Below, piece after piece: positions 1 to 55,900 of a DNA stretch of 64,000 nucleotides; the stretch's first letter is position 1; each line of letters begins with the position of its first letter. The DNA comes from Raillietiella orientalis. Its lineage: Eukaryota. Under the pieces are notes generated by a model. That model was not told the origin of the DNA, did no database searches, and was given only the letters and a program-made list of their open reading frames with translations. The stretch lies in NCBI GenBank assembly GCA_036172245.1, contig JAYWIR010000009.1, forward strand, positions 62,001 through 126,000, read 5' to 3'. The position numbers were made by a program, and so were the translations under genes.

Positions 1-129
1 ACCAGTGGTCCTTTCTGGACTGTAATCGAAGAAATAATTCCACAACGAATGAACACTGTTTTCTAGTGACTGCTTTTCTAATGACCTTACAATAAATGCC
101 CCGGCGTGACTCACTGGACATAAAACTCG

Positions 130-2300
130 TTGTTAGTAGGTATATTTAGTGCACACTACTATCAAGCCATCTTCATTTTCTGGTGCATCAATTCTGAATA
201 ACCCTCCCTGAAAAATTCCCGTATCGAATGGTACACCTAGCCTCAGTGATCATAGGATAAAAGCTCGAACTCAGAAACGAAAATAAAGCAATACAAGCAA
301 TGTATGAAAAGGTGCATCACTCAAAGAAAGGTGCACGAATGAGTGGAGGAGTTTACGAATGACACAATGAGTGCATCCGACGCAGACAATCCAGACCTGA
401 CTGTGGCAACAGCAAACCATGTCGAAAAAGTAAATCCCCTCGTTGAATGCAACAGACGTACGCTACCACTATTGAAGCAGTCTACATAGTCTACATATTG
501 CACATAATGCGCACCACCATAGAGAACACTGGTGGAGAACCTATGGCACGCGTGCCAGTAGTTCCACGGACGAAAATTTTCGCGGCATGCCATTAAGTAA
601 AAAAAAAAAGTTAATCACAAAACTAATTTGAATCCTATCAGTCGACCAATTTGCTTAGAATTCCAGGACTTCCCCTTGTGGAATCACACGTGTTTGTCAT
701 GCATTTTCGACTGTACAATCGCCAGTGTGCACAAATAAAGTACGGCACTTGTATTATTGTTGTGAATGCGACGACTTTCTGAAGATAAAGTTTTTAGTGA
801 AGGTGTGTATTATTCTTTGATATTTCTTCTTACCGTACTAAATAACATGGATGTTCAACATATAAAACAAAAACTATCGGAATCCAGCAATTTTGACTTC
901 CAAACCAGGTGGACTGCAAATTATGGCATGACCAACAAAGATAATACAGCTGTATGTGTCGTACGTTCAGAAACAGTTGCATGTAGGACGTCGTAAGTAA
1001 ATCGGCATTATAAGAGGAAGGAAGCGTAAATCGCTCCTTGAGATAAGACGAACAGAAAAAATTCATTACTCAGGCAATTGAAAACAGAAACATTCAATTA
1101 AACGCCTTGATAGAGTTTATCGGAAATCGTTCAAATATAACCCCCGCTACTTTTTTCGTTTCAAATGAAATTGCCAAACATGGAAAACCAGAACAGGGAA
1201 AACATCATTCCAAGAATGAAAGATATGCCATTGGCCAGAAACACTTTGAAAGACAGAATATTGGAAATGGCGAAAATACGACGTATAAGCAAAAAATTGA
1301 TATAAAAATCTTCCGCTTGAATTTCTCTTTGCCTTGAAAAAAGTACCAGCGTGGTAAGGATGGCAGCAGGGAACCCTTTGCACGATATGTATTGGCATAG
1401 CAATTTTCCGCTACCTCACGAATGTTTCTTTGCCAAGTTGATATTTCCCTCTCCGGAGAAGCATTGATAAGACTTTTCATCACAATTGATTCGATTCTGT
1501 AAAATGCATAGTGATATGCAACTCTTGTCTTCATGCAGGATTGTCACCCACAAATATTTCCTTACTAATACATCACTAAACATTAGTAAGCTATGGCAAC
1601 CGTATGGCTGTAGAGTCGGGTAGCCGCTATCTCCAGGTATCGGCGGAACGACACAACCGGGAGATGCACTCTTTGAACGGTAATATACGGTTCTACACTG
1701 AGGAAGGGTGGAGTCGTTTAGAAACCGCTCAAGAGTTGCACCACTATGCCTGGGGCACCGAGGCGGTAAAAAACACATAAATGTGAGTGTTCATTTCGTG
1801 CTACTCGCTGTGGTTACCGGTTGCTCCACAATGTAAGTGCAGCAATGGGCTTCTGAGAAGCTTCAGGGTGATGAAATTTGATGGTGGAAGCACTTGCAAG
1901 TTAATACATAATAAAAATGCGTAAATTTCATTTGAAATGGTAAAATAGCAATTCCAACCAGGCTCAACACTGTTTAAGTTCCTTCATGGACACAAAATAA
2001 CCATGGAACCAGATATCCTCTAAGGAATAAGTCTACTGAAATTTTTGCCTCATTTTGTGCTACAGTATCAAATTTTCCATTGTTTTCTTATTCCATACTG
2101 CTTCAAGAGCTCTCTAATGGCACTGTTTACCTGTAAGGCTTGCATTATTCCCTAGAAGAAGGATACCAACAGGGTACTCAATAGAATTCGCAGTTCAGTA
2201 GGATAACTAAGCAACAGCTTTCCAACTTATGATTAGAAGCACAATGCTTAGCAAGAAGGAAATATTGGCTTTACTGCATGGAAATAAATGTGCGCTCAAC
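130..2300 (-). pseudogene. Degenerate wolframin (WFS1)-like multipass membrane protein gene
   Basis: Minus-strand fragments in switching frames echo WFS1 in collinear order: VGKLLL (~VGKHYL), EISTWQRNIREVAENCY (~ETDLERAVRKAALVMY), CFPCSG (~CIPCSE), TTSYMQL/TAVLSLLVMP (~VTSYLSL/TAGLLSLLPSMP), VFVLYVEHPCYL (~LVVLNVSVPCLL), MACRENFR (~MAQLRNFK). GTAAG donors near 830 and 1561. Stops and frameshifts are present. Confidence 0.45.
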
Positions 2301-2794
2301 TTTCAAAGTGCAAAGTATGTCACAAAACACCACGAAGAAAAGATATTAAATCAGCATAGATACAACACATCATGTTCAAAAGGATGCACTTTAAGAGCAA
2401 AAGACTTTGATTTTGCTTCAAATATTCAACAACTGCAGTCTTTCTACCATCATAAGAATCATGAGAATAATTTCAATAATTACCAGCAATCAATTGAAAA
2501 CTTGCAATTTGAAATTTTTTTGTGCAACAATCTTACAGTACACTTGTTTCTTCAATGCATCAAATTCTACTCAAAACTATAGTGCTGCATAAAATGCTGT
2601 ACTGAGATACAATCATGGAAAACTCCGTAGTACTCTCTTGTTTCCAAACTATCCAGAGAGCAGTGGAAACAACAGAATAAGAGCAATGCAATCGTTAAAG
2701 AAATCGTCGAAATCAGAAACCATAGAAGTACTTCAGTGATATCAATTTCAATAAAAAAACGCATTTAATTTTCAAACTGAAGATGTTTAGATGC

Positions 2795-2804
2795 ACACAC
2801 AAAG
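2795..2804 (+). other. Phenuivirus-type segment 5' terminus (ACACAAAG, preceded by an extra AC)
   Basis: ACACAAAG at 2797-2804 begins 53 nt upstream of the nucleocapsid ATG (2850) and matches the conserved Phenuiviridae terminal octamer. Confidence 0.65.
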
Positions 2805-2849
2805 ATCTCTCAGTTTTGAAATATTGCAGAGACTGAATTATTAAGAAAA

Positions 2850-3584
2850 ATGGACAAATTGAACAAGGAGGAAGTAGAAAAATTAGTCAAAGAAATTCAA
2901 TCAACTTTGGTGTTTAATGATGAAATGGTAACTTCCATCAGACAAAATATAAATGATTTTGTTTATGAAAGTTTTGAGCCTAAAAGAATGGCTGTTATGA
3001 TATGGCACACGATTCAGGGGTATGCTCTTAAATCTAAAAAAGAGGATATCTTGATAATGATTATGTTAGCTTTGGAAAGAGGGAATAATTTAGACAGCAT
3101 GAGAGAAAAGATTAGTGAGCTGGTCTTGATGCTCTTTTTAAAACATACAAGTTCGTGTCTAACCCCGGTAAGAGCAAGGATGCAACAATGCTTTCAAGAG
3201 TGTCATTGTTCTTTCCTTGGTTGACTTGTGAGATGTGTTCTCACATATTATCACATACAGTTTCTCCCTCTCTTAGACACCTTAATATCTGCCATTTACC
3301 CTAGGCAAATGATGACAAGTGCATTTGCAAATAGGATACCCATAGAAACTGACAATGCAGAAAAGAGCACTGGAATTGATAAGATAAGATCTGCTTATCT
3401 TTTACATCAGTTTGAATTTACCAAGACAGTTTCAAAGATATCCCCAAATACAACCAACAGAAATGTAATCTCTAAAATTCGGGTTTATACAGATGCAGGT
3501 CAAGCAAATAATTACATTCACAATGCTGACGGAGTACACTATATGATTAAGTGGGGTATGTTTGACAAAAATTGGACATTCTGA
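2850..3584 (+). pseudogene. N: Endogenous viral element: Phlebovirus/Tenuivirus-family nucleocapsid (N) protein
   Basis: FVYESFEPKRM (~FAYQGFDARRV) and MIMLALERGNN (~MIVLALTRGNK). After a frameshift at ~3118: DALFKTYKFVSNPGKSKDATMLSRVSLFFPWLTC (~[33 protein letters not shown]). After a compensating shift at ~3272: YPRQMMTSAFA (~YPRHMMHPSFA), AYLLHQFEFTKTVS and KWGMFDKN. Intronless, ~245 codons. Confidence 0.9.
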
Positions 3585-3872
3585 ACAAAGATGACTAGGT
3601 TTTCATGCCTTCTTGTATTCTGATTGTTTAGAGTGATAAAAAACAATCGATGAAAGTTCTAGAAAATAAAACCATGCCACATCATTACCAATTCCAAATT
3701 CGAATTTCTAAGCACTTTCTTTGCCTTGGCATCTTCAAAACAGGCAGTCACTCTTAATAATAATAAACCTGCTGCATTATAGATCAACCTAACATGAATA
3801 TCAGAATGTCAAAAGTAAATTACAAGTACCAGAATTTAAATTTTCACATTTTTTCACAAAAAACATTAGTAC

Positions 3873-4417
3873 TTAGTCTGTACAGAGTTCATTGAGCATG
3901 TCAGTTTCCCATTGTGTTACCCTCTCATCTTTTAGCTTTTACCCTTTTAAGACTCTTCCTAACTGTACTTCCACCTCAGGAGGAACTGAGTCTCCAGATT
4001 TAAAGAGAATTTCTCACTTCCATAAATCCTCGTGTAATTCAATCTTAATCGTTTTGAGATTTTACTTTTTTTTATATAGATCTTATCAAAATGCACTGAA
4101 GCAATTCTGGGGCTATCAGGCAGAAAACCAGCAACCTATCAAAGTATACAAAAATTCTGTGTTGAATAGTGTTTTGCATAGATTTTTGTAACCATAATCC
4201 AGATATAGAAGGGTACGGGTTGACAAAATCCATGGGAAAAAAATTGAATAAAACTCCTAAAACGACACAACCCATCTTAGGAGCGCATTCTTTCAGGAGA
4301 TACTAATCAAAAGCACTAAATCAAGTAATTCCCTTGTAACCAATTATGCAATAAATTAGCAACATTAACATGTATGGTGCACAGGGCACATTTCTTGTTA
4401 TCTACTGTCAATCCCAT
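3873..4417 (-). pseudogene. Decayed ORF convergent on N; candidate ambisense non-structural (NSs-like) gene
   Basis: Protein-like text across frames, from MGLTVDNKKCALCTIH to ...EILFKSGDSVPPEVEVQLGRVLKG*KLKDERVTQWETDMLNELCTD*. Separated from the N stop by an AT-rich ~290 nt spacer. No recognisable motif. Confidence 0.3.
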
Positions 4418-5599
4418 TGATTCATTTTAAAATACGGAATATCATGAAATTACGTGCCCTTTTCACAAACCTGCGAGTCTTCATCAGATTCTTCCACTGC
4501 CACACTCATAAGGGTTTTTTTTTTTTCCTCTCTCCCGTTCTGACTTGCGAATACGCATGCTTGAAGTTTCTCACTAATCGAAAGGATGCACAGCCCATAT
4601 TGTGCAATTACAATATCAGACACTCGCAGAGCACTAATGTCACTAAGTGACCCAATCCCACAAAATCGATTTGCTACTAAACGGTGGGAAACACCCAATT
4701 TACACGGCATATGGACGATGGTATACTTCCAAAGGAGAAATCCGAAGCACTCTGAAACGCGCCTTCGCGTGGCAAAAATCGTTTTATCCGCTCTCTCAAA
4801 AAAAATGGCGAACTCTCACTCGAGCACGCAGGATTGCCAACAATGGTTAATGGAATCCCGCTAGATGCCTTCCAAAATCGACCATTTTTCAAGAAAAGGG
4901 ATTCCTGATTTCAACACCTAGGAATTTATTATTACTATTATGGAATCATTTAATGTCACTCAATCTAGAATCCCACAGTACAAACATGAAATGCAAGCTG
5001 ACAATTAATTGCTGATCACGTGAGATTTCTGTTATTCAGCTACTGCTATTTTTTCACGTGTTCGTTACGTTTGTAACGAGACCGCCGCACTGCCGGTTTT
5101 ATTACCTATACTTTAAAGACCACGTTAGAATAGTCGGTGAATTGTAATCAAATACTCAAACCAGTAGCTGCTGCACTTCAGCAATCGCAATTTCAATATC
5201 GAAATATTTGAACGATGAGAAACTCGTTTTCCTCGACAATCTTCGTCAATGATGCAATCATTGAATAATGTATCCAGATCCTCCAAGACTGGAACAGGAG
5301 TGAACAAAATATCCGAAATTTTATTGAAGACTATTTACAATATCCGTAATTGAAAATTCTCTTTGCAGTCACGAATAACTCGTAAACTTCGTCAGCCGGC
5401 GATTTCAAAACCTCTAAGATCCCTTCTTTGGTGAGAATGAATTCTTCGAATTTTTGCAGAATGAAATAGGAGCCACTGTTTCTGATGGATTCGGGAATTT
5501 TTCTTATTAGAATGCTTTCTTCTTCTTGCTCGATAGAATAAAAAGAAACTCAACTTCCCAATTTGAAGATTGCTCCGGCTAGTGCATCGGGGATGATTA

Positions 5600-8500
5600 C
5601 GATTACATGTTGCCCTGCTATCTGTTTCTCCTAGAAGCAAAACAGAGTTCTTCTAAAAGCGGAAAGCCTAAAAGGATGGAATTCTTTCCATGGAAAACAT
5701 CGTCTGGATTTTCCCGCCAGCAAGAGGTATGCCTGTGAAACAACGGAAATGCGTTGTGGGGCAGAGCTCCATGGAAGCAAAACACTGGTTTGCAGGATGA
5801 AAGCAAGAATATGAAAGGGAAGAAGCACGCAAAGTGTTCTCAGATTTTCATAATGATGTCATTAATTCTCATTATCTTCATTACTTGCATTCGTGCTGAA
5901 ACATGAAGATGGGAAGTATGGAACTGTTTGCTTCCAGAATTCACAACGCACCTCTGTTCACATTCATTACGTGCTTTCCCATTTGCATTAAACTTCACGT
6001 AATATAATGAGGAGCTCTGTTGCTGTAACTCAGTTACTAGCAAACGAAACTTTCTTCTTTCATGTCTTCATCAATATGGAGGTAGTAATAATGTCTACAC
6101 CCTTTAACCTTCCGTATTAGGATCGCAATTTTCTTCTTTAATTCTATCACACTCATACCCCACCCTGCCGAGCGACATATCGAGCTGGTTGCGAGTGAGA
6201 AATGAGGTCAGAAAACTATTGACGCCAAAAGAGAAAGATGCATGTTTGGCGAGGTTCCTGGCTCCAAAATTTGCATCCGCAACCAGGATTGGCCACCTGA
6301 TAACTAAGACACGAGTGATGCGCTACACTTTCTTTTATGAATGGTGTGCCTTTCTATGGTTACTGTACTACGTTCAGCAGCATTATATGAACTGATAATT
6401 CAAAGAAAGAACTTTATTCTTATATGTACACACAGTCTGCTTGCATATCAAGTTTTTTGTATAATAATTCATAGCATTTGTTTCAAGAAATAATTTCATC
6501 TATTTATGTGTGCCAATTTCCTTTTCTTTCTCAGAAATGTGCTCCTAGCCACAAAATCAATGAAAATGCAGTCTCATGATTGGTTTCTTGATAAGTATAC
6601 AAATATAGATTAACTGGGTAATTTACAGTCATTTCTCTCAATCCACCTTTTCCAGGGTTGGGTTTCTCTGAATAAGAATTTCCGGTGTTTACCGAACGAA
6701 TGTAGAGATGACATCAAACATTACAATTTAAATGCAAACACAAAAATCCTTGATTTTAAATGGCATTCAGCCACAGTACGTTTTCGCCATAAACTGTCTC
6801 CAACGTATCCACCGATTGTCTTTATTAAAAGTTTATAAATTTTGAGGATGTCTCGTATGAGGATTCAAAAGTCAGCGTGAAGTTCGTAGAAAACCTCTCA
6901 CACATTGTTTGAATTTTTCAGGCTTTACTGCTTCCTTGTTAGGAAAGATTGATTTCTCAATCATGAGCATTAGGAAAAAATTGGCAGGATTTAATCACCC
7001 TTTACATCTTCAACAATCTTTTTCTTCAAAAATACGTTGATGATCAGATGGTTCGCTAAGTACTCCAAGAGCCGGTCGCGTGCCTCGTGGCGCACGTGGC
7101 TCTTTAACAGTGTTCCACCCTACCCCCGGAGGGCGCGTGTTATTCTTCAAGATAGAGGGCACACTTTCCCTGGTTTTCCCCCTACGAGTTGCTGGTAATC
7201 AGCATGCACAGGAGCACGTCGTCTTGCACTACCGGCTATCCGAAGATCGCCACAAGCAAGTTGAGGCCACACTTCACTCCATGAGACCGTCATCCAATCC
7301 CTAACGACTGCTGCAAGCATAGTGACAGCACCTCCTGCACAAGTTTCTCCTTAGATCTCATGCAACATCAGAGAGTTGAAAATATTCTGACACAAGGGCG
7401 TGTCTTCTAGCTTACAGTATGCAAGGAGTTGTCCTTTCTTCAGTCACTCCACCGCCATCGAAGAGATTTCGGGAAATCGGCGGTAGGTCGCATAAGCGTC
7501 CACCTTTGCGGTCCAGCTGAACGTTTTCCGCATGCAACATCCTGTAGAAGTTGAATTCAGGAAGCAGGCACCCCTCGCCTTCGTGTAACACGATCTGCAT
7601 CCTCGGACCCACGGCTCGCAACGTCAGACGCACCTTCCGAAGACACACAGACAGACATCTCTCGTACAAAGTACGCAACTTCCGTACACAGAGTGCGACT
7701 GCGCGCAGCTGCTTGCTTCGCGCGAATGTCATACGAGCGGACTTTGAGCGGAGCTGCGCAGGCGCTTAGCGAGGGAGATGGACCCTTTGGAACATGCGCT
7801 TTCTTGATTGAAGCACGAAAAGCGCTAAAGAGCCCTCAATCACCCATTCGAGCTCTATCCCCCGGTCACAGTTGCACACAAGAACGTCTGGTTGCTGTTT
7901 TCAATCGATTTCAATAGCGGCCCGTGTTGTTCGCAGGAGAGCGGGTGAACAACCATCGTTGCATCGTAGAAGTGAACGTCTTGTGCTGAGGAATCGACAG
8001 AAGACGTGTCCTGCATTTCGCACGTCAGGCACCTCCTACCTAAAATCGGAGGCACGTGATCTTAGGGTACGAACAGTCCGCGCGTATGCCGCAGCCACCC
8101 TCTTGCCGCATCCGCTTCAACCGCTGTCGGTTCCGGCAGAAGTGTGCCACGCATAGCTGCCACGAGCAGCTTAGGGACAGCGGCTCGCGCTGCAGCATTT
8201 TCGCCACCCAGAGATCGCAGTTGCAGCACTTTTTCCGGAGAAGAGCTCCGACATCTTGGAGACAGCGACCGCCTCTCAGCCTGCCCGACACATGCCCCTG
8301 GGCACCGGTCGCGGCAGCCTGTGCGGGTGACCATCGGAAACACTTCTGTCGCCACCTTCCTTCAATCTGTGGCATTCCTTTCCTTGTTCAGATTTGTGAC
8401 CTTGCGGTAGCGCGCCACACGATGGACTCGACCTGCTGGCACGGGAGTCAACAGTTCATCTCATTCATCCTTTGCTTTATGAGCCGCCGGCTGAGTTTCG

Positions 8501-9065
8501 TTCGAAATTCCGTATGCGGGAGTTGCGTGAGATCGGAAAAACGAAACCTACGCGCTTTCGGTAGAAGATATACACAAATCCATTTTATCATGAGACATTT
8601 ATTAATATTTATTAACAAACACAAATTCATAGAATCAATGTATACGTTGAGAATGCTAAAAAATGAAGATGTATATGTTGATTCTATAGATGAAGATATC
8701 CTTATACACATAACAAATACACATGAAATCAAGATGGAAACCAGGAAATCTGAACACGTGCATCCATCATGGACTCACAATCCCGGAAGTAGAGTTCATC
8801 ATTTACCAGAAAAAGTTCCTATTCAGAGATATGACTAGACTATTGGGAAAAAGAAATGCAAGGGTCTTCTTCTATTTGTTAAATAACATTGCCTTTTCCC
8901 CTCATTTTTGATACCAGTTTCGTTCTCCATAAGACGGTATTCATGCAGTCCTTTCATAAACATTCATTTTACATATACACACATATATATGTTTATAAAG
9001 ATCGATACAATTTGGTGCGTACAAGGTGCATATATCTTTATTGTTTCTAAACTTTCTCCATGTTG
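5600..9065 (-). pseudogene. Decayed pepsin-like (A1) aspartic protease, copy A, split by a retroelement at ~7050-8560
   Basis: Collinear A1-like remnants: IGTFSG..DGCTCSDFLV..SSSIESTY (N-lobe, ~8.7-8.85 kb), GYVGDS, SIFVYLSRN (~6.6 kb), YYVKFNANG..C...CVVNSGS (~5.95 kb), ILLGFPLL (~5.67 kb). Many stops. Confidence 0.4.
7049..8560 (-). mobile_element. Degenerate REL non-LTR retrotransposon fragment with 3' terminal stem-loop
   Basis: GC-rich block. 7410-7500 is homologous to 51620-51720 and 20620-20720. The terminal motif 7049-7107 is nearly identical to 54975-55034. Confidence 0.55.
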
Positions 9066-9069
9066 AAGA

Positions 9070-12000
9070 CGTACCGCCTCTCGTACCGATTGCTATACTT
9101 AAAGAGGGAGCGGTCTTCAATGTCCTGCCTCATCTTCCAGCCACCGTGTTGCATGTTGCAGAGTAGGTGGATGGTGCAATTCAACTTGTCCCAATCGTCG
9201 ACCCCGCAGGATCGTTTCGACGAGTTGCTGGTGACAGGGAAGCGCCTGAAACCAGGAGAGCATGCATGCGAGCGCTGCCCTCGTCTTCTTCTTCCGAGGA
9301 TTCTTGATCCTGAGGGTAAGACGCACCAGCGGGTGGTCCGGCACAAGGTTCCGCGTTTCGCGAGATCCTTAGATGTGTTGTAGAGGACGTGGTCGATCGA
9401 CTTGTGGCTGACTGTTAGCCACAGCATTCCGAACCCATCACACGGCTGCCGATATGCCGTTTTTTGGATATGCCTGCAGAGATGTAGCCCAAAGACCTGC
9501 CAGAAAGGTTGAATTTCTCGTCGTCTCTCGCGAAAACTCCAAGAACCCGGTATTCCTGGTGGGAGCTGTTTCCGTTCTTCCTCTCGGCCTGCAGCTGATC
9601 AACATCTTGGCACCTCGGGCTCCACTTCTCAATTAAGAGCAGGACCACGACTCAGAGGAGAGAGAGCCCAACGAATGGAAGCTCTGCCGCACGCGCTGTT
9701 TGACGCGGAAGACTGCTCCAATCGCAGAAGCGCATCGCTGAGGGCACTTCACTTCCCCAACGCTGCCCCGCAGAACGCCATTGAACGGATGTTCAATGCC
9801 CAGGCTCACCAATTGCCTCTTCGATGGAAATCCTCTGTCTCGTGCGGACAGCAGTGATCGCCGAGATGGAAAACGGGCGTGGCTGCATCGGGCATGATAT
9901 CCCTGGGAGAATCTGCTGCGATTGCCATCTCTTGGATGAAAGCAGCAGCGAATGGCTCCACTCCGGGATGTGAGGCTCAAGGGAATCACTGGAAGACTAT
10001 GGGCAGGCTCACTCGATGACTTCGCCCGACTCGGACTCTCAGGAATCAGGTTAGCTCTTGTGGGTATGGTATATCCCATCTTCCATTGACCTTCCTAGCC
10101 CTCCTTTTTCTCCCTGCTCTCCTTCCTAATCATGTGCCCTTCTCTTCAAGCTCTAACGCGTCGCTCCTCCTATAAGTGCGCACATTTTCTTTCTTCATGT
10201 TGAATTAATAACACTCCTGCATGTTGAGGGTCTGAACATCTAGAGGTGTGAGGATCATGCGGAGAAGTTGATTTTCTATCAGCGAACAGGAAAGGAGGTT
10301 ACTATGTCGCAATCGCAGCTGAAGGTGGGATGGGAGCCACCGATCTGCAGATCGGAACGCGACAGCTGAAGTAACTTGGCAATAGAAAAAAATCAATAAA
10401 CAGCGACGCCAAGGAACGCGATCTTCATTCATCCGCGCCGTGTCTTCAGAAGCCCTTTGTGTGCATCTCTTGCATCTTCCTCTTCAGCTTCAAGGCGTGT
10501 CCCAAGATCTCATGCGCTGCTTCATCGCGTAGCAGGTAACCTCCGCACTTCTGAAACCATGCCGAATGGCAATCGAGGCGGCAGGAGAATGTCCGCCGCC
10601 GAGCAAGCAGTAGCGCTTTGGAGGGCGACCACAGCGAAACAGCAAATCCTTCCCAACTGATCCAATGAGTCGAAGTAATTGGTCCTGGAAATGGATGGCG
10701 CTCAAGCGTCGAGCCTATACCCAACCGCCGGGACATAGCCGTTCCTGCCTTCCAGGCGCGTTCCGGAGGACGGCAGGTTCCTCAGGTTCCGGCGAGTAGG
10801 AGGGTCGCGACGGTGCGCGCAGAAGAGTTTGGGCGCGAGCTCGCCTGGAGCCGCCGTCGGCGCAGATCTTGGTGGTAGTAGCAAATACTCCAGTGAGATC
10901 CTGGAGGTCTGATGTGGAGAAGGGTTCCATGCGAACAGCCTTTGAGCATGGTTCAGTCGATCCTAAGTCCCCGAAGAAATCCGTGGGACGTGGCCAAAGT
11001 CCTCGTGCTCCTGTCGCAGTTGAAAAAGCTGCAAAACCTTCCCAGCTGCCTGGGTACGCTGTAGTCAGTTGCGCGGGAAGCCGTGGTGCAAGTCGAGCAA
11101 GGTCACTCGGAGGATAGCACTTAGTTGACGGACGACATGGGAAGAGCCAGAAAGTTCATTGTGAAATCTCAGAAGCTCAGCATAAAAGACAGACCTTTCC
11201 GTGCGGAAGCTGAAGGCTGCTACATTCACCCCCACCATCCAGAATGTAAGGAAAACTCCTCTGCTTGGCAACAGTCACTTCTCTCCTTCGGAGAGGGCAG
11301 GAGCACTGGGGTAAAACGAACCTCCTCAGGTCGCATTGTAGTTCCACCATGTAGACCATTCCTACGCGCCCGATAGAACGCATCAACCTCAGGATTGCCA
11401 TGCATTTAGTAATGCAAGTCTAGGTGTTGGCTTCCTCCATGCATCTTTGTCCCCAGAGTATAGGAAGATACAAGGCTGCTCTCCCGAAAGTTGGCCTTCT
11501 TGACAGTGTTCATTCTCTCCCTCTCACGTGGCGGTTCCTCCACGTCTACTACTTCGCTGTCATGGCCATTTTTGATAAACGATGGAGCTCAAGTTCCATC
11601 TTCTGTGGCCTTCGAATGCAGTCGTGCATCTCCTCTCGAGACAGCGATGACTCGCGGTGCACGGCATCGCGTGTCTCCCGAGAGTTTGCCGGTGTTTTGT
11701 CCTGATAAAAAGGGAAGAAAAATGCAAAAATAAGGGGCCACAAAGTACAGCAAATGTACCACCTGGAAGTATCTGCCTATATTGAACCGAACCAGAGGGA
11801 CTACCACAGCGTGGAAGCAGCACATCTAAAGGTGCTAGGCGCACAAACCCCCCATGAGCTCGCCAAGATAATTCGTTGCACCGCTTAGAGGAAATTTTAA
11901 TGACCTTCATGAAGGAGGCCAGCTCTCACTCGAGGATGGTTGGTCTGCCCCCTTGCCTGCTCTCGCGACGCCAATGCACACAGACCGATGAAAACTCGAA

Positions 12001-16669: not shown

Positions 16670-18120
16670 ATTTTTGCTTACTTTTCATGTTACGATTTTT
16701 AGTTTCCTTTTCTGCATTTTCTTTTCTTTATTTTTTCCATTTCTCTTTTTTATCGCTTTCCATTTTACCCTCTTTTCTAAGCTTTTCGTTTTTTTTTTTT
16801 TCAATTGCATCATTCTCTTTCATTATTTTGTTTTCCTTCGTTTTCCCCCCATCTTGATTTCCCCTATTCTTTGTTTTTCTCTTATTCTTTTCTTTCTTTC
16901 CCATTTTTCACTAATTTGACTTCTTTACCTTTCTTTTTTCCTTTCTCCCTTTTTTCTTCTTCCTTCCCTTTTCCTTTCATTTCTTCTTTTCTCCTTTTTT
17001 AGATTTTCTTCCTACTCTTGTTCTTTCTTCATTTTTACCATTTTAATGTATTTTCTTTTATTTTCTTAATTCCTTCGATATGATTTGTCCATTTCTATTC
17101 ATTTCCTTTTATCTTTTTATTTCAACTTTCTCCTTTTTTTTTTTTTTCCTTTCACTTCCGACTGTTATCTTCTTTCTTTTTGCTGCTCTGTCTTCTTAGT
17201 GTTCTTTTTGTTTTCTCCTTTTTTTGTATCTTTTCGTTTCTTCTTTGCTCCATTCTGCTGCTGATGTTCTTTTTTTTTTTTTCTCCATCTTTTCCTTTTT
17301 TATGTAGTTTTCATCTTCTTTACTTTCTCCTTTCTCCCCTTTGTTCCTTATTTTTGTAGTTTTCGTCCTTTTTTGTTTCTCCGTTCTCCTATAATGTTCC
17401 TTATTTTTGTAGTTTTCATCTTCTTTTGTCTGTCTTGGTTTCTTGTTTTTTGGCTTCCTTGTCCTGGTAGTGTTCTTTTTTTTGTTTTCACGTTTTTTTG
17501 GTCTCTTTTCTCTTTCTTTTTCTTCTCTTTTCTGTGCTAATGTTCTTTATTTTTATAATTTTCTTGTTATTTTCTTTCTCTTGGTTTCTTGTTTTATTTT
17601 CCTGTTCATCTTTTGTTCACCATTTTCTGTTCTGATTTGCTTTTCTGTTTTTTCTCTCATTTCTGTCTTTTGTATCTTCTTTTTCTACCTTTTTATTTTT
17701 CTCTGCTTTCTCTTCTTAGTTAATAGGAAGAGTAATGGCCTTTTTTTTAGTGACCTTCTTGTTCTTGTTTTTTTCTCTCCTTTCTATTCTGTTTTCACAT
17801 CTCTGAGTTCTCTCCTTAGTTTCTTGGTTTTTTTTTTTCTTGGTTTTTCCTCTTTCCTTGCACCTTTTTTCCTTTCCTCTTTTGTCCATTTCTTTGTTCC
17901 GTTTTTGTCCTCCCTTTTTCCTTCCTTTTTTCCTTTTTTCTCTGAGTCTGTTTTTTTTCTGTTTTCCTCTTTTGTTTGTTGTTTTCAATTATGTCGTCCC
18001 TATTGTCTTCTTTTCCTTCCCTTCTTTTCTTTTCTCTCCTTTCCTCCTTTGTTCTTCTTGGGAATGTTTTCTCTTTCCTTTTTGATTCATTTCCTTCCTT
18101 CCTTGCTTTTTTCTTCCTCC
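16670..18120. repeat. ~1.45 kb pyrimidine-rich low-complexity tract (purine-rich, K/E/R-coding on minus strand)
   Basis: Almost entirely T/C on the + strand. Internal imperfect repeats TTATTTTTGTAGTTTTC(A/G)TC at ~17300, ~17348 and ~17401. Confidence 0.9.
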
Positions 18121-19199
18121 GCAGACCTCCAGAAATGGCACGACAAGAACTTCAGCATTCCGAGGACCAGAAAAAGCCTCCGTGGCGCACGAAGCGCTCG
18201 CAGTGGCACCGAGAGAAAGCGACACAGCTCGAGTGACGTCACCACCACTGCTCATGACGAAAGGGACAGAAGTCACTCACGCCGACAGAAGGAGACGAAC
18301 GCAAGGGTGGCGCCAGGGGACGCGGTGCCTCCCCGGCGGTAGGATAGCAGCGCCGCCCGCAAGGTCCTCCCTGCACAGGTGGGCGGGACGGAATTCGCTC
18401 GCGCCCTAGCGAAATCCCATCGCATCAAGGGGTCGATGCCGACGATTCACGGCCCTCGGTTCCCGGGACAGCCCGCGAGCCGAGGCGACCCCGGTGGCTA
18501 CGGGGGAATGGCCAGGGGCTACTCGACTGCAAGGACTCCGCGTTACCTGGACTCTGGGCACACAAATCGCGCATCTTCCGGAAACGAAGCCGCACTCGCG
18601 CGTGCAACCATTCACACGTGTTCTCATTCACGCGTGCAACCGTGGATACCCATTCGCTCAAGTACGAGGAGAAGTTTTCCTGAAAACACAGGCGGCCTCC
18701 TTTCAGGAGGCCCGCCGGGCGGAGCGAACACTCCCTTTAGAAGGCCTGATACCCCACTGCCGGGGGGAACAGTGGGGCGCGGAAGAGTAGGACGCATCTG
18801 CAATGCCAGGAAGACGTCCCCGCGTTCTGAGACGCCAGGAAAGCAAAGGGGGAGGGGAGAAGCTGCTGTTCGGGTGACGTCATCCTAGCTGTCAACGGAA
18901 GCCATGCGCAGTTGCAGCGGTTGGATTGCAACGGGAATCCTGGACTGCGGTGTTCGACTCCACATTTGGGTTCCCTTTCCGCTTGCCTGACTTGTGAGCC
19001 ACGCCTGTTGGTCGCATGTGGGCTTCGGGAAACCTTCCTGTTCCTGGTCTGCCTATTCAAGGGGCTGATTGCGACGTCGGAATCGCTATCCACGCAGCCA
19101 CCTCGCAGAGCCAATGCCTGCTGCCAGAAGTGTTCGTGAGGGGCAGATATCCAGGGGACCTCGGTTGGCCAGGATGGCCACTTTGTTTCGTGCTGTAAG

Positions 19200-20880
19200 C
19201 GAAAAGCATAGGAAGAAATATAAGAAATAAGGACAGGATGGAAGGGAGAAAGAATGTTTTAGGGATGGCAGGGTTATGGGAAATGGAGCAAAGTGTAGTA
19301 CTGCGTCGCTTGTTCTTCTTTTATCGGATAGGTCGTGCAGCGCACCGAGGATGGTATCTGCGATTCCTGGACCAAAGGACGAATGGAGGGGGTGGAGCTA
19401 CCGAGGCGAGGGACGGCTACGGATCACCTCCTGATGTCCTGGCGAGGGAATCCGGTGCTCCTGGAAGAGATGGTTGCCAGCGGGAGGGAGCGGTTCGGCC
19501 TTCGCGTTCGAGCGGCCGCATGCCGTTTGTTCCGCGTGCTCGCCAACGGCCTTTCCGCTTTTTCCTCTCAATCGGTTTTCGGCCGATCTGCGAGCGCTTT
19601 CGTGGAGGTCGAGCTTCTCGTCGGCGTGAATGGGCAGAGTGTGGTCGGCTTTCGCCCGGCGCCGGCCCTTCAGCTCGCGCGATAGGCGGCTTAACGACGG
19701 CTGCCCCTGGGATGCCGGTCTCGCTGCTAAGCAGCTCATGTGGGCGGCGGACGTGCTTGTGGGGAACACGGGTCATACCCTGAGTCGGGATGCGGTGCTC
19801 CTGGGGACGACGGATGGTTGTTTCCTCCTGGGGACTTGTTCCATCCGTGGAAGCAGCTGACCTTTCGACTGCAGCATGGGTGTCCACCTGGGCGCGCGAG
19901 TTGGGGAGGCGGCGGCGTTCCGCTGTTCCTTTTGCGTTGCCTGGAGCAGCTCATCTCCTCCAGGCCCGAATCCCACCACGTTCCATCCCATCTTCCCCAT
20001 TCGTGGATCCAAGGACACGTTCCGACGCAAGCGTTCCGGAGGCGGAGAAATGACTCGAAACGAGAAGGTCGGCGCCGATGCTTAAAGATTGCGTGACTCC
20101 CCTGGAAAAAACGCGCACGCGAAACGGCGATTTCTCATCGAAAAGGGAAAAAAGGAAAACGCGGAATTCAGTTTGCTGAGCGCACCGGCTTGAAGACATG
20201 GAGATTTACCGCGCAACACCGCGTCCTGGTTTCCTCGGGCGCGATTCCGCGTCGCTCACCTTGCACGCTCCCGTGCCTGAAATGGTGTTAGCTCTCGGCT
20301 CCCGTGCGTTCCACGTGTTGTCGGGACAGCTCCCTCTTCTCCTTGGTCCACGCCCAGCAGCAGCAGTTCTACCGCGTATGTCCATTCCGCGTCTCCGGCG
20401 ACGTTCGTGCTGGCGCCGGCGGCGGCCTGTTGCGGGAGCACTGGTATCGCCGATGCTTCCTACCGCTACCCACCCCAGCCACGTTGGGGTGGGTGCGGCC
20501 CCCGCGCCTCGAAAGGCACGTCCGCTCCTCTTGACTATCTTGGGGGGGATGAGAGAGAAGAATCGCCGGATAATCCGTTTCCATGGATGTCGAATTCTTG
20601 GCCCGCCCCACCCGCGCATGCTGGAGGTTACGATTGTTACCTTGCCGGTCAGAAGAACACGAAGGAGTGTCACCCGTGGCAACCGCCTTCCGCAGCTTCG
20701 AAGCAGGAATGGCCTGAGACGGTCGTTCCTTCCTCGCTCCCGTGGACCGTTAGCCCGGGTTTCTCGCCTGCGCGGGAACGTGCGGGCGCGTCTATCCATC
20801 CCGACAGGGTCGCGTCTTCGCGGCGGCCCTTACCTTGTTCTCTCCCACTTGACGAGGACTAGGGGCTCAAGAAAACACAT
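19200..20880 (-). mobile_element. 3' portion (downstream ORF + 3' UTR) of the same REL retrotransposon family
   Basis: GWNVVGFGPGGDELL...PTRAPR...LL...SVVP aligns with GWEFSCTIAGKTKLL...TPRAM...LLSVVP at ~52.2 kb. A pyrimidine-rich UTR follows on the minus strand. Confidence 0.55.
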
Positions 20881-21199
20881 GTAACTTCCAGACGAACAGA
20901 AAAACGGGTAATGGGACCGGAGATTGCATGCGTCTATCTAGGGAAATTCCAGTTCTAGTTATGGTGCAGCTGATCAAGCCTTCACTTGGAATGCGTCACT
21001 TTTGTGGGTAAATTTGCCAGTGAGTTCATCGCAAGATGGCAGCTATTGTGTGAATATGGAGTTCCCATTGTATACAGAGTTTTTTGAAGTTGATCAGAGC
21101 TGCCACACTGTATTGGTCCATATGAGTTTGAGGAAATGGAGAACGATTTTCAGCACGCTTATCTTCATGACATGCCTTTGCGGCATAGGCTTTAGAGGA

Positions 21200-30721: not shown

Positions 30722-30811
30722 GGAGGAAGGGGGAGATGGCATGCAACAGGTTGGCCCACCAGGAGGAAGGGGGAGATGGCATGCAACAGGTTGGCCCACC
30801 AGGAGGAAGGG
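30722..30811. repeat. Perfect 40-bp tandem duplication (2.25 copies)
   Basis: GGAGGAAGGGGGAGATGGCATGCAACAGGTTGGCCCACCA at 30722 and 30762, partial third copy at 30802. Confidence 0.95.
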
Positions 30812-31639: not shown

Positions 31640-34600
31640 TCCTCACTTGGAAGCCATCTTTTCCAATGGACGGACTTCGTCTGTGGTTGTGCACAGCACT
31701 TTTCTTCAGCACGCAGCGCACTTCCTGCGAGGAAAGGGCAATGTTTTACGGAAAGATGGGGGAATGGAAGGGATCGCAGATCGCCGGAAGGGGTTCTCTG
31801 CATCCGACTTTGGATGCGGGCAAGTGCCGGTCGTAATGCTAATGCTGTGCATCAAATTTTCCAATTTCTCTTCTTTCCTTTGTGGAGCTTCAGGAAACGC
31901 GTTTTCCTTGCCTTCGGGTGGACAAGTCACGCCCACTTCGATCCACTTTCCTTGTTTTTCAAAGATGAGATTTGGCTTTAACCGAGAGTCCACTCCAGGC
32001 TCCCTTTGGTCCGCTGATACGAGCTTGCATCCTCCTACCTTTGTGGCGGCTGCTTGCAGTCTCAGCACGATCGCATCATGTCGGGAGATGTGGTAAATGC
32101 TTGACGCAACGATTTCATATGTGTGGTAATGTCTCTTTCCGACAGTTGGATCTTCAGCACAGGCGATCGGGTGGCAATTTTCTTGCTGCTCCTCTAATTG
32201 GCACGACGTTTAGCATTGGCGGAGTGGATGAAGCGATAATCCGCGAATCGAATGCGGTCACCTGAAGTGAGGAAGTGGATGGAATCCATGTGTGATCCAA
32301 CGTAGTTGATGGCTTTCCCTTGGTCCCGATGATTTTTTATTACGGAATGCCACATCTTTTCTCGTTGGACTGTTCGGAAGTTGGCCGCGAATTTCTTCCT
32401 AACCGTTGTATCTAACGCCATTCCAGGAATTTGCACTTTCGGTCCACTATCTTCGAAATCTTCTGTGGCCTTGGTGAGCTTGGGAGCTTGCCTGGCAGTA
32501 GTCCAGAAGCTCTTGATGTCTGCGCTGCTTCTTTCAAACTTCCCGTTGCATCCTCCTGAAAGGAATCGACCGGCTTCTTCGTCTGTGGGTGGTTGAAGTA
32601 TTTTCTTCGCCACCGCTTCACGCAAAGATTCTCCGGCGAGACTTCTTACAATTTTGTGTGGCGATGTTCAAAGCTTGAAACAACAAGCCACGATGAAGGT
32701 GTCGGATAGGCTCAAGAGCCTAAGGCAAGCTTTTTTCCTGTCACCGTAAATGTGTTCGTTTGCGGCAGTCGGAGGAAGGAGAAGTATTTCCTTGACTAGC
32801 AGTCTTATCTTGATGTCTGGATATTTCCGATCCGATTCGGTCCATCCCTAGCCTCCCGAAGTGGATGAGGCTAGGGAAGAAAAATACTCTAAGCGCATCC
32901 AACTTCTGCCACGGTGACAGTTCGGATGATAAAAAAATTTCTGCTTTTGTAAGGATGTCTTCTTTGGTTGTTTTCTTGTTGAAGATCTCGATTCCGAATG
33001 GCTTTCCACGGAACTTGTAGGCTTCCGGAGGTTCCGTGTTCTCAATGAGGCCCTTTTTGAGCTCAATCTCCATGTGTTTCAAGCCTTTTGGCGTTTTCCT
33101 TCCATAGAATGGTGTTACGCACTTTGTGGGGTTGATGGTGAGTCCGATTCTTTCTGATATTGATTCCATTTGACATATTCGCTTTTTCAATTCTTCTTCG
33201 GTGTCCGCAAAGATCACCAGGTCATCTACGGAGGCAAGTACGCTGTCTTCCCCGTAAGATTCTTCGAATGTTCTAATTACCGGCTCTAAGGACCATATGA
33301 AGACAAAGGAGCTCAGCGGGCATCCTTGCTTGACTCCTCTTCGTAGTTTTCGTAGTCTTGTGACCCCAGACTCCACTTGGATCAATGTCGTGCTGTCTTC
33401 ATATAGGTCTTGGCTGAGCGTAACGAACTGCTCACCTACTCCTGTTTCCCTAAGAGTTCTTAGCAGAAACTTGCGGGAGGTGTTTCCAAATGCGTTTATG
33501 AGATCAATGAAGACTTGTTTCAAGCTTTTGCGACATTTCGCGTGATCCAAACGTGTCTGTAGGATGAGGTTTTAATCAAGCACTCCATCTCCTTTCTGCT
33601 GAGGGCTCATAATTCATGGGTTATAAGGCATTCCTTAATTCCTGTAAGAAGGCATTTCGCGTACACTCCATAGATACTGTTGCCAATCGAGATCCATCAC
33701 CAATCTGCCATTTCCTGAAGTGCATTCCCTGGTTTCGGCAGCAGAATGGTTTTCGTACACTTCCAGGAGGGTATGTTTACTTCGTTCTTAATGGAATGTT
33801 GAATATGAGGGTAATCACTTCGCTGTTGGGATCCACTTTTCTCCATCCTGTGCATGTGAATCCATCCGTTTCTGGGCTGGAGTTTAGCTTTCTTCAGGAG
33901 ATTGGCCACCTCCTTAGTGGAGAAGAGAGTCATATTCTTAGGAGAGATCACTTGTTTTCTTCCTAATAGTGTTTACCATCAGTTTTCCATTTGCTGTTTG
34001 GGGAATTTCTAGTTCCTGATGAAAGCAGTGCTCTACTTTTTGATTGTCGAGTGAGCACATCGTGTTTTTGTATCCTATTATCGTTCTTATTGAGCTCCTT
34101 CTATTCATGTTGTATAATTTTTGAATTGCTTTTTTATTTAGGAGGTTTGTCACGAATTTCCTCTTCAACGGTTTCTGTTCTTTCACTTTTAGGATGGTTT
34201 TTACTTTGGATATCAGATTTTCGTATGACTCTTCAAAGTCATTCCTGCATGTGTTCTCCGATTGGTGCATGGTTGGAAAATGCTCTTTTTCTATTGGTGG
34301 TTTCACACAGGAGTTGGTTTCTTTCTTACCAATTGCGGTCTTAGTCCTTCGTACCTGCGCCATTTTGCGTATTTGATTTTCTACATTGTGTCGTGTTTGT
34401 TATCGAATGTGTACTTCATTTATCGACTTTTCCTCTTCAGTCAACTTGCATTCTTGTTCCACAGGATGATGAATTTCTTTGTAGAGGTATCCTTTTATTT
34501 CGTTATCCGGATCGTTTTGTGTTATCGTTTCGTTATCCTGGTTATCCTGATCTTTGTCTGATGCGAGGATTTCTTGGTGGTTAATTACGCATTGCCATTT

Positions 34601-42799: not shown

Positions 42800-45700
42800 A
42801 TGAAGACGATTGATTTCAAGTCGATTTCAGCAGTTTATCTTATGAAAGATGTTCAGAATGATGTGTTTCTGCAGTTTTTGAAGGTAGCATTGCTTATGTA
42901 TTTTGAATGTTGTTTTTCATTTTAGTTTTGTGATTTCTCTTTGCAACTAGTTTTTGATATAAACATACCTCTGGTTTCTGAGTCAAATGCCAGGATTGTA
43001 TTTAAATGAATTTACAGGTGGTTTTAAAACATTTTTATGGAAACTTAGGGAATTTCTGCACACCTGCTAGGGGCAACGTTAGCTGTGTTGAAAACGTAAT
43101 ATGGAAAATTTTGCGTTACGATATGTTTACCCGTTTGCTCCCCTGTGAAACATCAGCTTGCCTAAGGCTACTTTGTTTAGATGTTCAAATTTAGAGAGCA
43201 GTAGTATCATGATTGTTTGGCCAAGTGGGGTCAAGTTGCATATTTGAATGGAAAACTGCAAGTTATTGAAGACCATATGGATAATTAACATTTATTGCAG
43301 CAAAGTAAAACAGTTGCTTTTGATGTGACTGTTTTTTCAACTGTTTGCATAATAGACATTTCATTTGAAAATAATTGGTATCAAACATCGGTTATTTATG
43401 ATTTTGCTCCAATAAACGGTTGTGGGATTGGTTAACATATTGTTTTGATGCACTTAGATTGTGGCATAATTTTTCACATTGGAGTTCGTAATTATTATTG
43501 CTATGTAGTATAAGTAGGAATTAGAATATTGCTGTTTTTTGTGCTGGCCAATTGGGATTTGGTAAACTGATGATACTGAGGATGGAGATCAGAGAGTCAG
43601 AGATACGGCTTACTTGGTTGTGAAAAAGCAAAGTATTGTAAATTCTATATCTCAAGTGGCGTTTTCGAGTTCACTGAAGACTTGGGGGATGGCTGAGTCA
43701 AGGTGAAGATTGCGTTAGGTTGTATCCTAACAACACAACTTTCGAAAACAAATATCTTGTTGTATAATTAGAAAATGTCAGACAGTCTTAGACATTATGT
43801 TAACTTATACTTGAGGAATTTAACTTATACTTTGAAAGAATTGTTTAAATAAAATCATGATTTCAGATCCATGAATGTTTAAAGCTCATACTTCTTTGTG
43901 ACAAGTCCATTTTATTTGGTTTTAGGTTTGCAGGACATTTGAGTAAAGGACTCACTTTTTTGTATTCTTTGTTCTCTTTTTAATATTTTTTCCGTCTTAC
44001 ACAAATTGTTGAATCCTTGTTTCCATTTTTCTTTTCAGTCTTTTTTTTAATCTATTCTCTCTATTTAGTTCTATTAAGTAATTGACATGCTTCTGTATAT
44101 TCAGAATGTCAAATATTTCTTTGCAATTTAAATTCACATCCAATTTTTCCAGACGTTGCCTGTGCAGATAAAGGTGTTGAAAGATGTGGAAGACATTTCA
44201 AAAGCATGTCTTAGTCACAGTATTTGCTTAACAGATGATTTTTTTTCGGAAGAATTTCAGTATTTGAAGATGAAGCAAGAAAGGTTTGTCTTGGGTCTTT
44301 TTGCATTTTTTGTTCTATAAAAAGTTTATATAAAAAGTGTAATCTAGCATTTACATAAAGACTTAAAAAGATGTAGAAACTTATGCCCTCAAGATGTAAA
44401 CTACAATTTTGTTTTTTATGTGAAAAATTCTATGAGTCATTTACTTAATGGGATTTACAAAATTTCGCTCTCTTGAACAATTCCAGTTTGAAATCGTTTT
44501 ATCATTTTTCAGCTTTGTCATAATGAGTTGCATACACTTTGGAGCACTTGCTGAAGCTTCCACTCAGGAAACTGATGACTTGTTTTTCCCTCTGCACCAT
44601 AAACCAAAAGCTGTTTATAGGAATATACTTGAAGGTATAAAGGTTGCATTTACAGGATTTTCTGATGTGCAAGCTGTGGTGAGCCTTGAATGACATGAAT
44701 TGTACTTGTTCATTATACATTACATCAGAATTCTCTGGGCCGACTTGTTCAGTACTTGGGTGGGAAACTCTCACAAGAAATGGTTTCTAGTGTGACACAT
44801 TTAGTAGCAGCTAAAGTAGTCACTGGGAAAGCAAGATATGCATTTTTATTCAGGTATGCTACCCTTTTTTAACAAGGATAATCTGCAGTCAAAGCAGGGT
44901 TCCTATAATGACTGATTCCTGGATACAAAAATTGTGGTCTCTGAGAAATGAAGACAATATTGATTTTCTTCGAATTGAAAAGGTTTGTTTCTTTTCTAAT
45001 TATACTTAGATAGTTTGTGAGCTTGATATATATGCCTTTTTACAATGTAAATGGTTGTTTGGTGTTTTGACTTTTAAGTACCCAGATCCAGTAGTGTTCA
45101 AATCACTATAATGAGAAAAGTTTTGAATTTTATGCCAACAATGTGAATATTATGCCTAGTACGTGATACAGATTGTTCTTGATAGAATCTGTTGTTTGTG
45201 ATGTGAACTTATGTAGGCGGGAGGACAACTGTTAAAAATGTAGTAAATTCGTAAACTGCTGCAGTTTGTTTACGAAATGTTGAAATTTCTTCTCATTTCT
45301 TTTTTTTTGATGAAAATTTAGATGCAAATGAAATGTTTTTGCATAAAAAGAATGCAATATGAACAGGAATGAGCATTCCTGTTCGCAATGCTTCTTCCTG
45401 TTCACAATAAGCATTAGTTAAAATACATATCTTGAATTGCCAATATTTAATACAAAGGATTATTTGTTTATTGGTGTTGTTTTTGCCTTTGGTTACAGGG
45501 GGATTTTCACAAGAATATTGTGGCCTTTTTCGGGTTTTTCAGTGTATAGTTACTTTCAAAATCAGCATTTGAAATAATTTTTGGTCAGTAAATAATCCTA
45601 ATTAGATCTTGAATTGCTTAATGATGGTGAGCAATGAATTTTTATAGACATGTATTGTTTATATAAGGAATTCCGTATCAAACCACTGCTGGGAATGCAT

Positions 45701-54974: not shown

Positions 54975-55900
54975 GGTTCGCTAAGTACCTCAGAGCCGGT
55001 CGCGTGCCTCGCGGCGCACGTGGCTCTTTTTAAACACACTGTTTTGTTTCCACGCCCCTCCGCCCGCGGCAACCCGCAAGGGGACGTGTAATCCTTCAGA
55101 ATAGGGGGCACCCCGGGATGGGGGTCCGCCCTATGAATCCAGGAAGGACTCGGAGTCTGTTCCTCTCACACTTGGGGAGGGATCCCCCCGGACAGGGGGG
55201 ATCGCACCTCCCACCCTGGTTGTCTCCGAAGGGGAACCCCGAAGGGAATCTCCCCTTCATCATTCTCTCCGGAGGGACACCCCCTGGGAGAGGGGTGGTC
55301 CTCTCCATTTCAACTTCTCCGAAGGGAACCCGGAAAGGATCCGCTTGTAGGAATTTCTTCTCCGGAGGGAACCCGCAAGGGAACTGCTCCTGTTCACTCC
55401 TCTGAAGAGAACTCCGAAGGGACGCTTCCGAAACTCAGAAGGGGCTCTGCAGCTTTCCGCAGGGAATCGCTCTCGCTGGCTTCCTTGCACTTTTCTGGAG
55501 AGAGAGCGACTCGGAGGGTCCCCCCCGCAACAGAGGGAGGTACGCTCCTTTAAGCAACTGTAGAGGTGCCCGTGAGGGCTCCTGCTCCATCTTGAAACGG
55601 GAAGGGTCCCCACGGTGTGGGGGTTCGCTCTCCGTTGCACGACAGGAGGGGGAACTCCCCACTCCTTTATTCCTGGGAGGACCCGCAGGTCGACTCCCAT
55701 TGTTCCGGCCTTCATCGGTGGCCTCCGGTTTAAACCACCACCGGCGCCACGCCCGAATGTCTCGGCCAACCACGCCATTGCAGGAGAAACTCGGAACCCA
55801 ACGACGCAGTGGCGTCAGAGTTTCTGCCGAAGTATTCGAACCCGCGAGGCACGGTGCCACACACGGAAGCCTTAACCACAAAGCCTCCGACTCGGGCGAA
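54975..55900 (-). mobile_element. 3' end of REL-family element: downstream-ORF C-terminus, hairpin-array UTR, terminal stem-loop, A-rich tail
   Basis: ASLGSEFLLQWRGWPRH resembles the downstream-ORF C-terminus. Terminal motif shared with 7049-7107. Poly(T) on the + strand abuts 54975. Confidence 0.65.

Follow-up and report, generated by a model that had tools for sequence, protein, structure and literature searches.

Does the DNA at positions 2850-3584 of this 64,000-nucleotide stretch (the window, as the whole stretch that was analyzed is called below) preserve a gene of a negative-strand RNA virus, and if so, how did it come to lie in an invertebrate genome? Our analysis makes it very probable that the locus is a non-retroviral endogenous viral element (EVE), now a pseudogene, that was copied into DNA from the small (S) segment of a negative-strand RNA virus resembling phenuiviruses and comprises the N-gene end of that segment. 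The route by which the copy was made is addressed below with graded confidence.

The plus strand of the locus encodes a homolog of the nucleocapsid (N) protein of the Tenui_N family (PF05733) in three collinear pieces that are read in frame 0, frame 2 and again frame 0 (Table 1). The first open stretch (2850-3221) matches positions 2-76 of the 224 positions of the Pfam model with an E-value of 5.5e-6 and 26.6 bits, above the cut-off of 25. The second (3119-3301; positions 84-127, E 6.7e-4, 19.8 bits) and the third (3225-3581; positions 135-223, E 9.6e-4, 19.2 bits) are each below the cut-off when taken alone. All three match Tenui_N in the order in which they occur in the DNA, and their cover reaches 223 of the 224 positions. 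Membership in Tenui_N is thus indicated by the curated score of the first piece, the collinear cover of the whole domain, and homology to N proteins of solved structure.

The assignment was assessed further with a profile of 271 positions made from 36 related proteins (those of P0002-P0039 with at least 180 aa; two shorter ones were omitted). This relatives' profile matches 2850-3128 in frame 0 (positions 1-93, 3e-17), 3125-3274 in frame 2 (positions 96-145, 1.6e-14) and 3285-3569 in frame 0 (positions 149-238, 5e-27), and the next best fragment within 2400-4300 has an E-value of 0.39. In tblastn searches, this locus was the only one in the window matched by the relatives (29 of 29), with 14 HSPs elsewhere that all had an E-value of at least 0.049. 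A sequence search of the PDB returned N chains in all of the first ten rows, with E-values from 4.3e-12 to 4.7e-5 over query residues 20-240. We take PDB entries 4j4x, 4csf/4csg/4h5l, 5fva, 3lyf and 3ouo to be N of sandfly-fever-group, Toscana and Rift Valley fever viruses. Because the homology to solved N chains extends over residues 20-240, the encoded sequence would be expected to adopt the two-lobed phlebovirus N fold. Together, the Pfam, profile and PDB matches bear out the phenuivirus-type N homolog proposed in the preliminary description, and the check that it had suggested, HMMER against the Tenui/Phlebo N family, gave N-family matches for all three pieces.

Table 1. Features of the N-derived element, in window positions.
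Feature	Position	Strand	Basis or remark
5' untranslated leader of viral S segment, N-coding sense	2797..2849	+	starts with segment terminus ACACAAAGA (2797-2805)
N piece 1 (frame 0): ATG, N-terminal arm, ERGNN motif	2850..3119	+	Tenui_N 2-76; relatives' profile 1-93
Frame change 1 (frame 0 to 2), bracketed position	3119..3128	+	overlap of profile matches; alignment to relative P0002
N piece 2 (frame 2)	3125..3274	+	Tenui_N 84-127; relatives' profile 96-145
TGA closing the frame from ATG 2850, inside the out-of-frame stretch	3222..3224	+	ORF reading
Frame change 2 (frame 2 to 0), bracketed position	3272..3285	+	profile matches and alignment
N piece 3 (frame 0): YPxxMMTSAFA and LHQFEF motifs	3285..3581	+	Tenui_N 135-223; relatives' profile 149-238; alignments
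Stop TGA, early relative to homologs	3582..3584	+	homology ends at the TGA or a few bases off

The frame that starts at the ATG runs for 124 codons before it closes; the second frame is open from 3119 to 3301, and the first reopens from 3225 to 3584. When the three pieces are joined, the 241 codons contain no stop, compared with 25 and 23 stops in the other two forward frames and 10-15 in the reverse frames, which is far beyond chance. The positions of the relatives' profile are continuous over both breaks on unbroken DNA, and the N copy therefore has no introns, as had been claimed; the break points originally placed at about 3118 and 3272 are correct to within about 10 nt (Table 1). Both frame changes lie outside homopolymers of more than three bases, which speaks against the commonest assembly error, while leaving room for one, and as placed on the assembly sequence they are opposite in sign. 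A single ORF able to make N, as expected of a member of the Phenuiviridae, is not what we find, given the two frame changes and the closure inside the out-of-frame stretch. As its reading frames stand, the locus can no longer make N protein, since the ATG frame closes so early. About 88% of the N coding sequence and the 53-nt leader are retained.

The copy was originally described as full-length, with only two compensating frameshifts. This holds for the shifts, which are two and of opposite sign, and for the Pfam model, which is covered nearly to its last position, but the C-terminal end of N is missing. Positions 239-271 of the relatives' profile (the last 33 or so) occur in no frame up to 4300, and relatives in the alignment have about 25 extra residues after a shared WG..DKN motif. 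Solved phlebovirus N chains, by contrast, continue for 18-21 residues beyond the region matched in the PDB search; the element stops there, and it is out of frame in mid-protein. Because these profile positions are missing and the solved chains are longer, we conclude that the copy does not include the C-terminal end of N, and measured against a complete N that includes this end it is incomplete. Also lacking are the complementary terminus and the remainder of the segment. The viral part starts at 2797, and its 3' edge falls between about 3570 and 3677, where host repeat begins to be recognizable (see below).

A tandem second N copy was considered, because direct repeats near the stop look like the N start or like the terminus, but it was rejected, as the repeats are at chance level and no N homology follows them; repeats of 27 nt and 19 nt near the stop were equaled or exceeded in 16 of 300 shuffles and in 2 of 38 real AT-rich segments. 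No tandem repeats were detected in 1-9000, and Rfam gave nothing in the window. Elsewhere in the window, a perfect 40-nt tandem duplication (2.2 copies, 100% match) lies at 30722-30811. Self-BLAST of 1-8000 against the window returned a single repeat, a 57-nt direct match between 7049-7105 and 54974-55029 with 93% identity, and no flanking LTRs.

The 5' boundary of the element is defined by a phenuivirus segment terminus, which is located 53 nt upstream of the ATG. Accounts of uukuviruses, wenriviruses and a tick phlebovirus give ACACAAAGAC as their terminus, with N starting at base 36 in the tick phlebovirus (PMC8652140, PMC6001614). S segments of the Phenuiviridae would be expected to have ACACAAAG(A/AC) as their 5' terminus, a short way ahead of the start of N, and this is what is found at 2797-2805. 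The 8-mer of the terminus occurs three times in the window on both strands together, as shuffles predict (mean 3.04); arithmetic from these shuffles puts the chance of meeting it within a particular 100-nt stretch of a single strand at about 0.002.

A complete ambisense S segment of 1868 nt (L001), found in IMG/VR with a 6-row alignment of the relatives, offers a comparison. It begins with ACACAAAGACCCCT, has the ATG of N at position 27 and ends with GGGGTCTTTGTGT. Like the element, it starts with ACACAAAGA (12 of its first 14 bases are present in the window), followed by a short leader and then N. In contrast to the window, its 3' end is complementary (…GTCTTTGTGT) and its opposite strand carries an ORF of 291 aa, and its N is much closer to solved phlebovirus N than the element is (133 vs. 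49.5 bits). The best match of the 291-aa ORF in the window has an E-value of 1.9, so that no counterpart is detectable, which is weak evidence of absence as NSs proteins are very variable. The complementary 3' terminus (…CTTTGTGT) occurs on the plus strand of the window only at 10455 and 36088, where the context is unfitting. Two candidates for such an end were dropped. The site at 10455, taken as the end of a 6-kb L-like insert, has no RdRp or other viral domain between it and the element, and CATTGTGT at 3910, taken as a 3' segment end, is a one-mismatch site without an extended panhandle and at chance level (estimated p about 0.2).

Several of the relatives sit on short contigs of 0.9-1.4 kb. 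In one 1225-nt metagenome contig (L002), N (identical to P0005, the third-best relative) is the only ORF of 80 aa or more. The ends of this contig are complementary and of another kind, TTAAACTA… and …TAGTTTAAT, instead of ACACAAAG, and terminal motifs therefore vary among the relatives of the element.

To which viruses is the element related? We searched 1.84 billion representative proteins with HMMER, using as query (P0001) a straight frame-0 reading in which the one stop was written as X. This search found 27 proteins with an E-value of at most 1e-3, of which five were at or below 1e-10 and none at or below 1e-30; the best value was 3.4e-15, and identities were 23-34%. No near-identical protein was found among about 15 billion public proteins. 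A word-indexed protein search was too coarse for the N family, yielding one match among 194 candidates with a single query and two among 6755 with a 28-row profile.

Of the 28 cluster representatives that were looked up, six bear names. The named viral relatives are Aphis citricidus bunyavirus (Citricivirus), Hymenopteran phenui-related virus OKIAV306, Wenling crustacean virus 7 and Landhopper phenui-like virus 2, and the two other names belong to annotated proteins, one from the genome of the woodlouse Armadillidium vulgare and one from that of the sand fly Sergentomyia squamirostris. Most of the other representatives come on short contigs whose length, about 0.9-2.3 kb, is that expected of a viral S segment. 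Four of the 28 are on contigs of 5-366 kb, two of them labeled with arthropod genomes; these four are probably endogenous copies in other arthropods. The element shares with exogenous phenui-like viruses the N family and the motifs ERGNN, YPxxMM(T/S)AFA and LHQxEF. The N proteins of these viruses measure about 240-320 aa, and several of them are encoded on contigs of approximately 1-1.4 kb with N alone. In contrast to the element, these viruses have intact N genes with a longer C-terminus, and the identity of the element to them is limited to the range given above.

A maximum-likelihood tree was made from 31 rows, comprising the element with an X at each break, P0002-P0029, P0031 and the N of L001 (P0030 and P0032-P0039 were omitted as close cluster mates). 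No supported clade includes the element, whose end branch measures 1.45; its best identity is 35% over 175 columns, and the bootstraps are incompletely settled. A quick tree agrees in leaving it unplaced. As the tree draws its references from six named rows and one proxy, L001, this position means "unplaced among the relatives found" rather than "outside all genera". The low identity in both the library search and the tree alignment, together with the unplaced position, is in line with the undescribed virus lineage that had been suggested, and the sequence comparisons support the view that the element represents a virus lineage without a close known relative.

The surroundings of the element bear on how it was acquired. 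Our Pfam scan covered every stop-to-stop ORF of the window that reaches 90 aa (234 ORFs) and, in addition, 87 ORFs of 45-89 aa in positions 1-10000. Besides the N pieces, the matches in the window are one RVT_1 fragment, one BRCT domain and one WD40 array. In the assembly, the element is contiguous with DNA that carries these eukaryotic domains in the same 64 kb, and its integration is read from this assembly. The only reverse transcriptase (RT) ORF, at 32744-33571 on the minus strand (RVT_1, E 2.6e-16), is 29 kb from the element. Its best matches, at 32-36% identity, are polyproteins from spiders that their sources name as R2-type retrotransposons, and an uncharacterized scorpion protein; because of these named matches we assign the fragment to the non-LTR type. 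At such a distance, they give no more than a hint of a chelicerate or other arthropod host. The 87 short ORFs gave nothing credible, and no retroelement domain was detected within 10 kb. A TRAP-delta match at 1580-1777 (E 0.0075) was dropped, the best PDB hit having an E-value of 0.18 and the chains being unrelated. As to a piRNA-cluster-type setting, the window contains a single RT fragment in 64 kb, and the flanks of the element are repeated in an independent-looking DNA run that is described below.

The other domains of the window are observations in their own right. The WD40 repeats (Pfam E 1.5e-43 and 4.5e-18; array 58901-60079) belong to a single intronless frame of about 590 codons at 58901-60664 on the plus strand. 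This frame has three in-frame stops (59303-59305, 59321-59323 and 60080-60082), its last 193 codons are without a Pfam match, and it looks like a processed or decaying gene copy. The BRCT domain is an isolated ORF at 45638-45997 on the plus strand (E 2.9e-5, above the cut-off) and is probably an exon of a host gene.

The strongest competitor to the proposed origin concerns the machinery. A non-LTR (LINE-type) element could have retro-copied viral N mRNA by target-primed reverse transcription, in the way that processed pseudogenes arise. The non-LTR-type RT fragment in the window would fit such an event, and the AC dinucleotide of the terminus is present once more in the two bases just ahead of it, perhaps as the remnant of a capped leader; the latter reading is our assumption from bunyavirus biology. 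However, this fragment is the one RT-bearing ORF among 234, and the 3' edge of the element does not have the marks of a LINE product. No poly(A) tail is present there: a run of five A at 3567 and one of six at 3638 are both short and internal, and the longest nearby A-runs, of 6-7 nt, lie away from the edge. Nor did we detect a target-site duplication, as the 8-mers shared by both edges (3 seen, about 1.3 expected) do not go beyond chance, and the candidate TGTTTAGA, at 2784 and 3625, was accordingly rejected. An exact 5' end combined with a missing 3' part is, moreover, the opposite of the polarity of an mRNA retrocopy made by a LINE. Thus, a 3' poly(A), a target-site duplication and a complete 3' end, the three features of a LINE-processed retrocopy, are all absent. 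Mammalian endogenous bornavirus-like N elements are described as having been made from viral mRNA by LINE-1 and as bearing A-tails and target-site duplications. The present element likewise is the N gene of a negative-strand RNA virus in an animal genome, but it has neither mark. We therefore regard LINE retrocopying of N mRNA as unlikely, and the earlier proposal that the gene was captured by abundant non-LTR RTs nearby finds no backing in the single, distant fragment or at the edges of the element.

For the EVE derived from the end of an S segment, a different course can be proposed. Within a germline cell, RNA of the virus would have been reverse transcribed by the RT of a host retroelement, and the viral cDNA would have been joined to the chromosome; that some host RT must have made the cDNA is established for this class of element, and PMC6580184 says so too. 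The template may have been a viral RNA with its full end rather than a polyadenylated mRNA; the cDNA would then have started from the 3' end of the genomic (negative) strand and broken off early. A genomic-strand template would be more likely than a polyadenylated mRNA because one end of the element is the exact terminus and the far end is lost. We put the genomic strand forward tentatively, at appreciably less than an even chance, because a later deletion would look alike: the 3' loss could be such a deletion, which would void the reasoning on the template strand. After integration, the copy may have drifted neutrally for a short time.

How short this time was can be estimated from the pieced frame. 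Among the 2169 single-base changes that are possible in it, 104 would create a stop. Under an equal-rate model, with neutrality (no selection) assumed, the probability of finding no stops drops below 5% above about 0.09 substitutions per site, or about 0.14 when the TGA at the end of the frame is taken as one such stop. Because the pieced frame has no stops, neutral decay would be limited to about d<0.09. With neutral decay so low, the divergence of the element (roughly 70% at the protein level, against every known N) would mostly predate integration. Marks of decay as host DNA are present, namely the frame changes, the truncation and a GC content (0.344) that is near, and slightly lower than, that of the flanks (0.386 and 0.377). 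Further away, two GC-rich blocks (17400-20900 and 50000-52200, with 0.59-0.60 compared with 0.34 around the element) contain many ORFs of 150-300 aa on both strands, none with a Pfam match.

The same pieced frame could also be read as that of a live, co-opted host gene, in which both frame changes would be assembly errors and a working, C-terminally shortened N-like protein would be made. The uninterrupted codons, the preserved start codon and family motifs, and the fact that the two shifts cancel out are all consistent with this. However, opposite single-step shifts are estimated to cancel by chance about half of the time, neither shift is in a long homopolymer, and the C-terminal positions present in the relatives and in solved N chains are missing. 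In addition, the public proteins offer nothing nearly identical, so that no annotated ortholog or paralog is seen. Co-option is thus very improbable, and a silent or merely transcribed fossil is the most likely present state of the locus. If the EVE has any present role, it would be that of a template for antisense small RNAs, as a candidate role only.

The evidence for integration can be compared with an independent-looking DNA run, X1 (share 0.18), the one run listed for this DNA, which covers both flanks, in part as diverged repeat copies. Its seven contig pieces cover 2078-2566, 3677-3964 and two chance bits of 18 nt; 2567-3676 is uncovered. X1 has second, diverged copies of the flank stretches 2325-2419 (13 differences) and 3677-3891 (18 differences), and these flanks are therefore host repeat, which does not recur inside the window in the self-BLAST of 1-8000. 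That there was no germline insertion at all, and that the viral DNA is an assembly chimera or episomal or somatic DNA carried along with host DNA, would agree with junctions that no X1 contig bridges, but it is hardly credible for a copy with disabling frame changes, a truncation and a GC content close to both flanks, and an RNA virus would enter a DNA assembly only if reverse transcribed.

A germline EVE would place the locus in a class that has been described before. Elements derived from N of the Phenuiviridae are known in ticks and sand flies, and the accounts cited here propose for N-derived elements of arthropods an involvement of host retroelement RTs and the production of piRNAs (PMC10675110, PMC6580184). 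They also describe a role as small-RNA template for such elements in ticks and mosquitoes (PMC10675110, PMC6580184). As far as these accounts describe them, arthropod phenuivirus N EVEs (NIRVS) are, like the element, DNA copies of a phlebovirus-like N that are fragmentary and have disrupted frames. In contrast to them, the element has at most 35% identity to any N found, keeps an exact terminus and leader, and was seen without a retroelement neighborhood. Phenuivirus N EVEs are thus well documented as a kind in arthropods, while the lineage represented here is without a close known relative.

The element has three uses. First, it gives a dated sample of a lineage whose identity to anything among about 15 billion public proteins is 35% at most; this widens the known diversity of the family and directs attention to a virus that might yet be discovered in the host. 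Second, with its segment end preserved, the element is among the cleaner examples in which to ask what species of viral RNA is reverse transcribed. Third, its low decay makes it a reasonable candidate for tests of antiviral small RNAs. None of these three uses would greatly surprise specialists. A more far-reaching reading combines a deep, undescribed phenuivirus lineage with canonical ACACAAAGA termini, a recent entry into the germline (d below about 0.09) and cDNA made from the 3' end of the genomic strand; as a whole, this combination is doubtful. If it were true, the virus may still circulate in the host, and the start of cDNA synthesis on the genomic negative strand would be a route to EVEs that is not usually considered for bunyaviruses.
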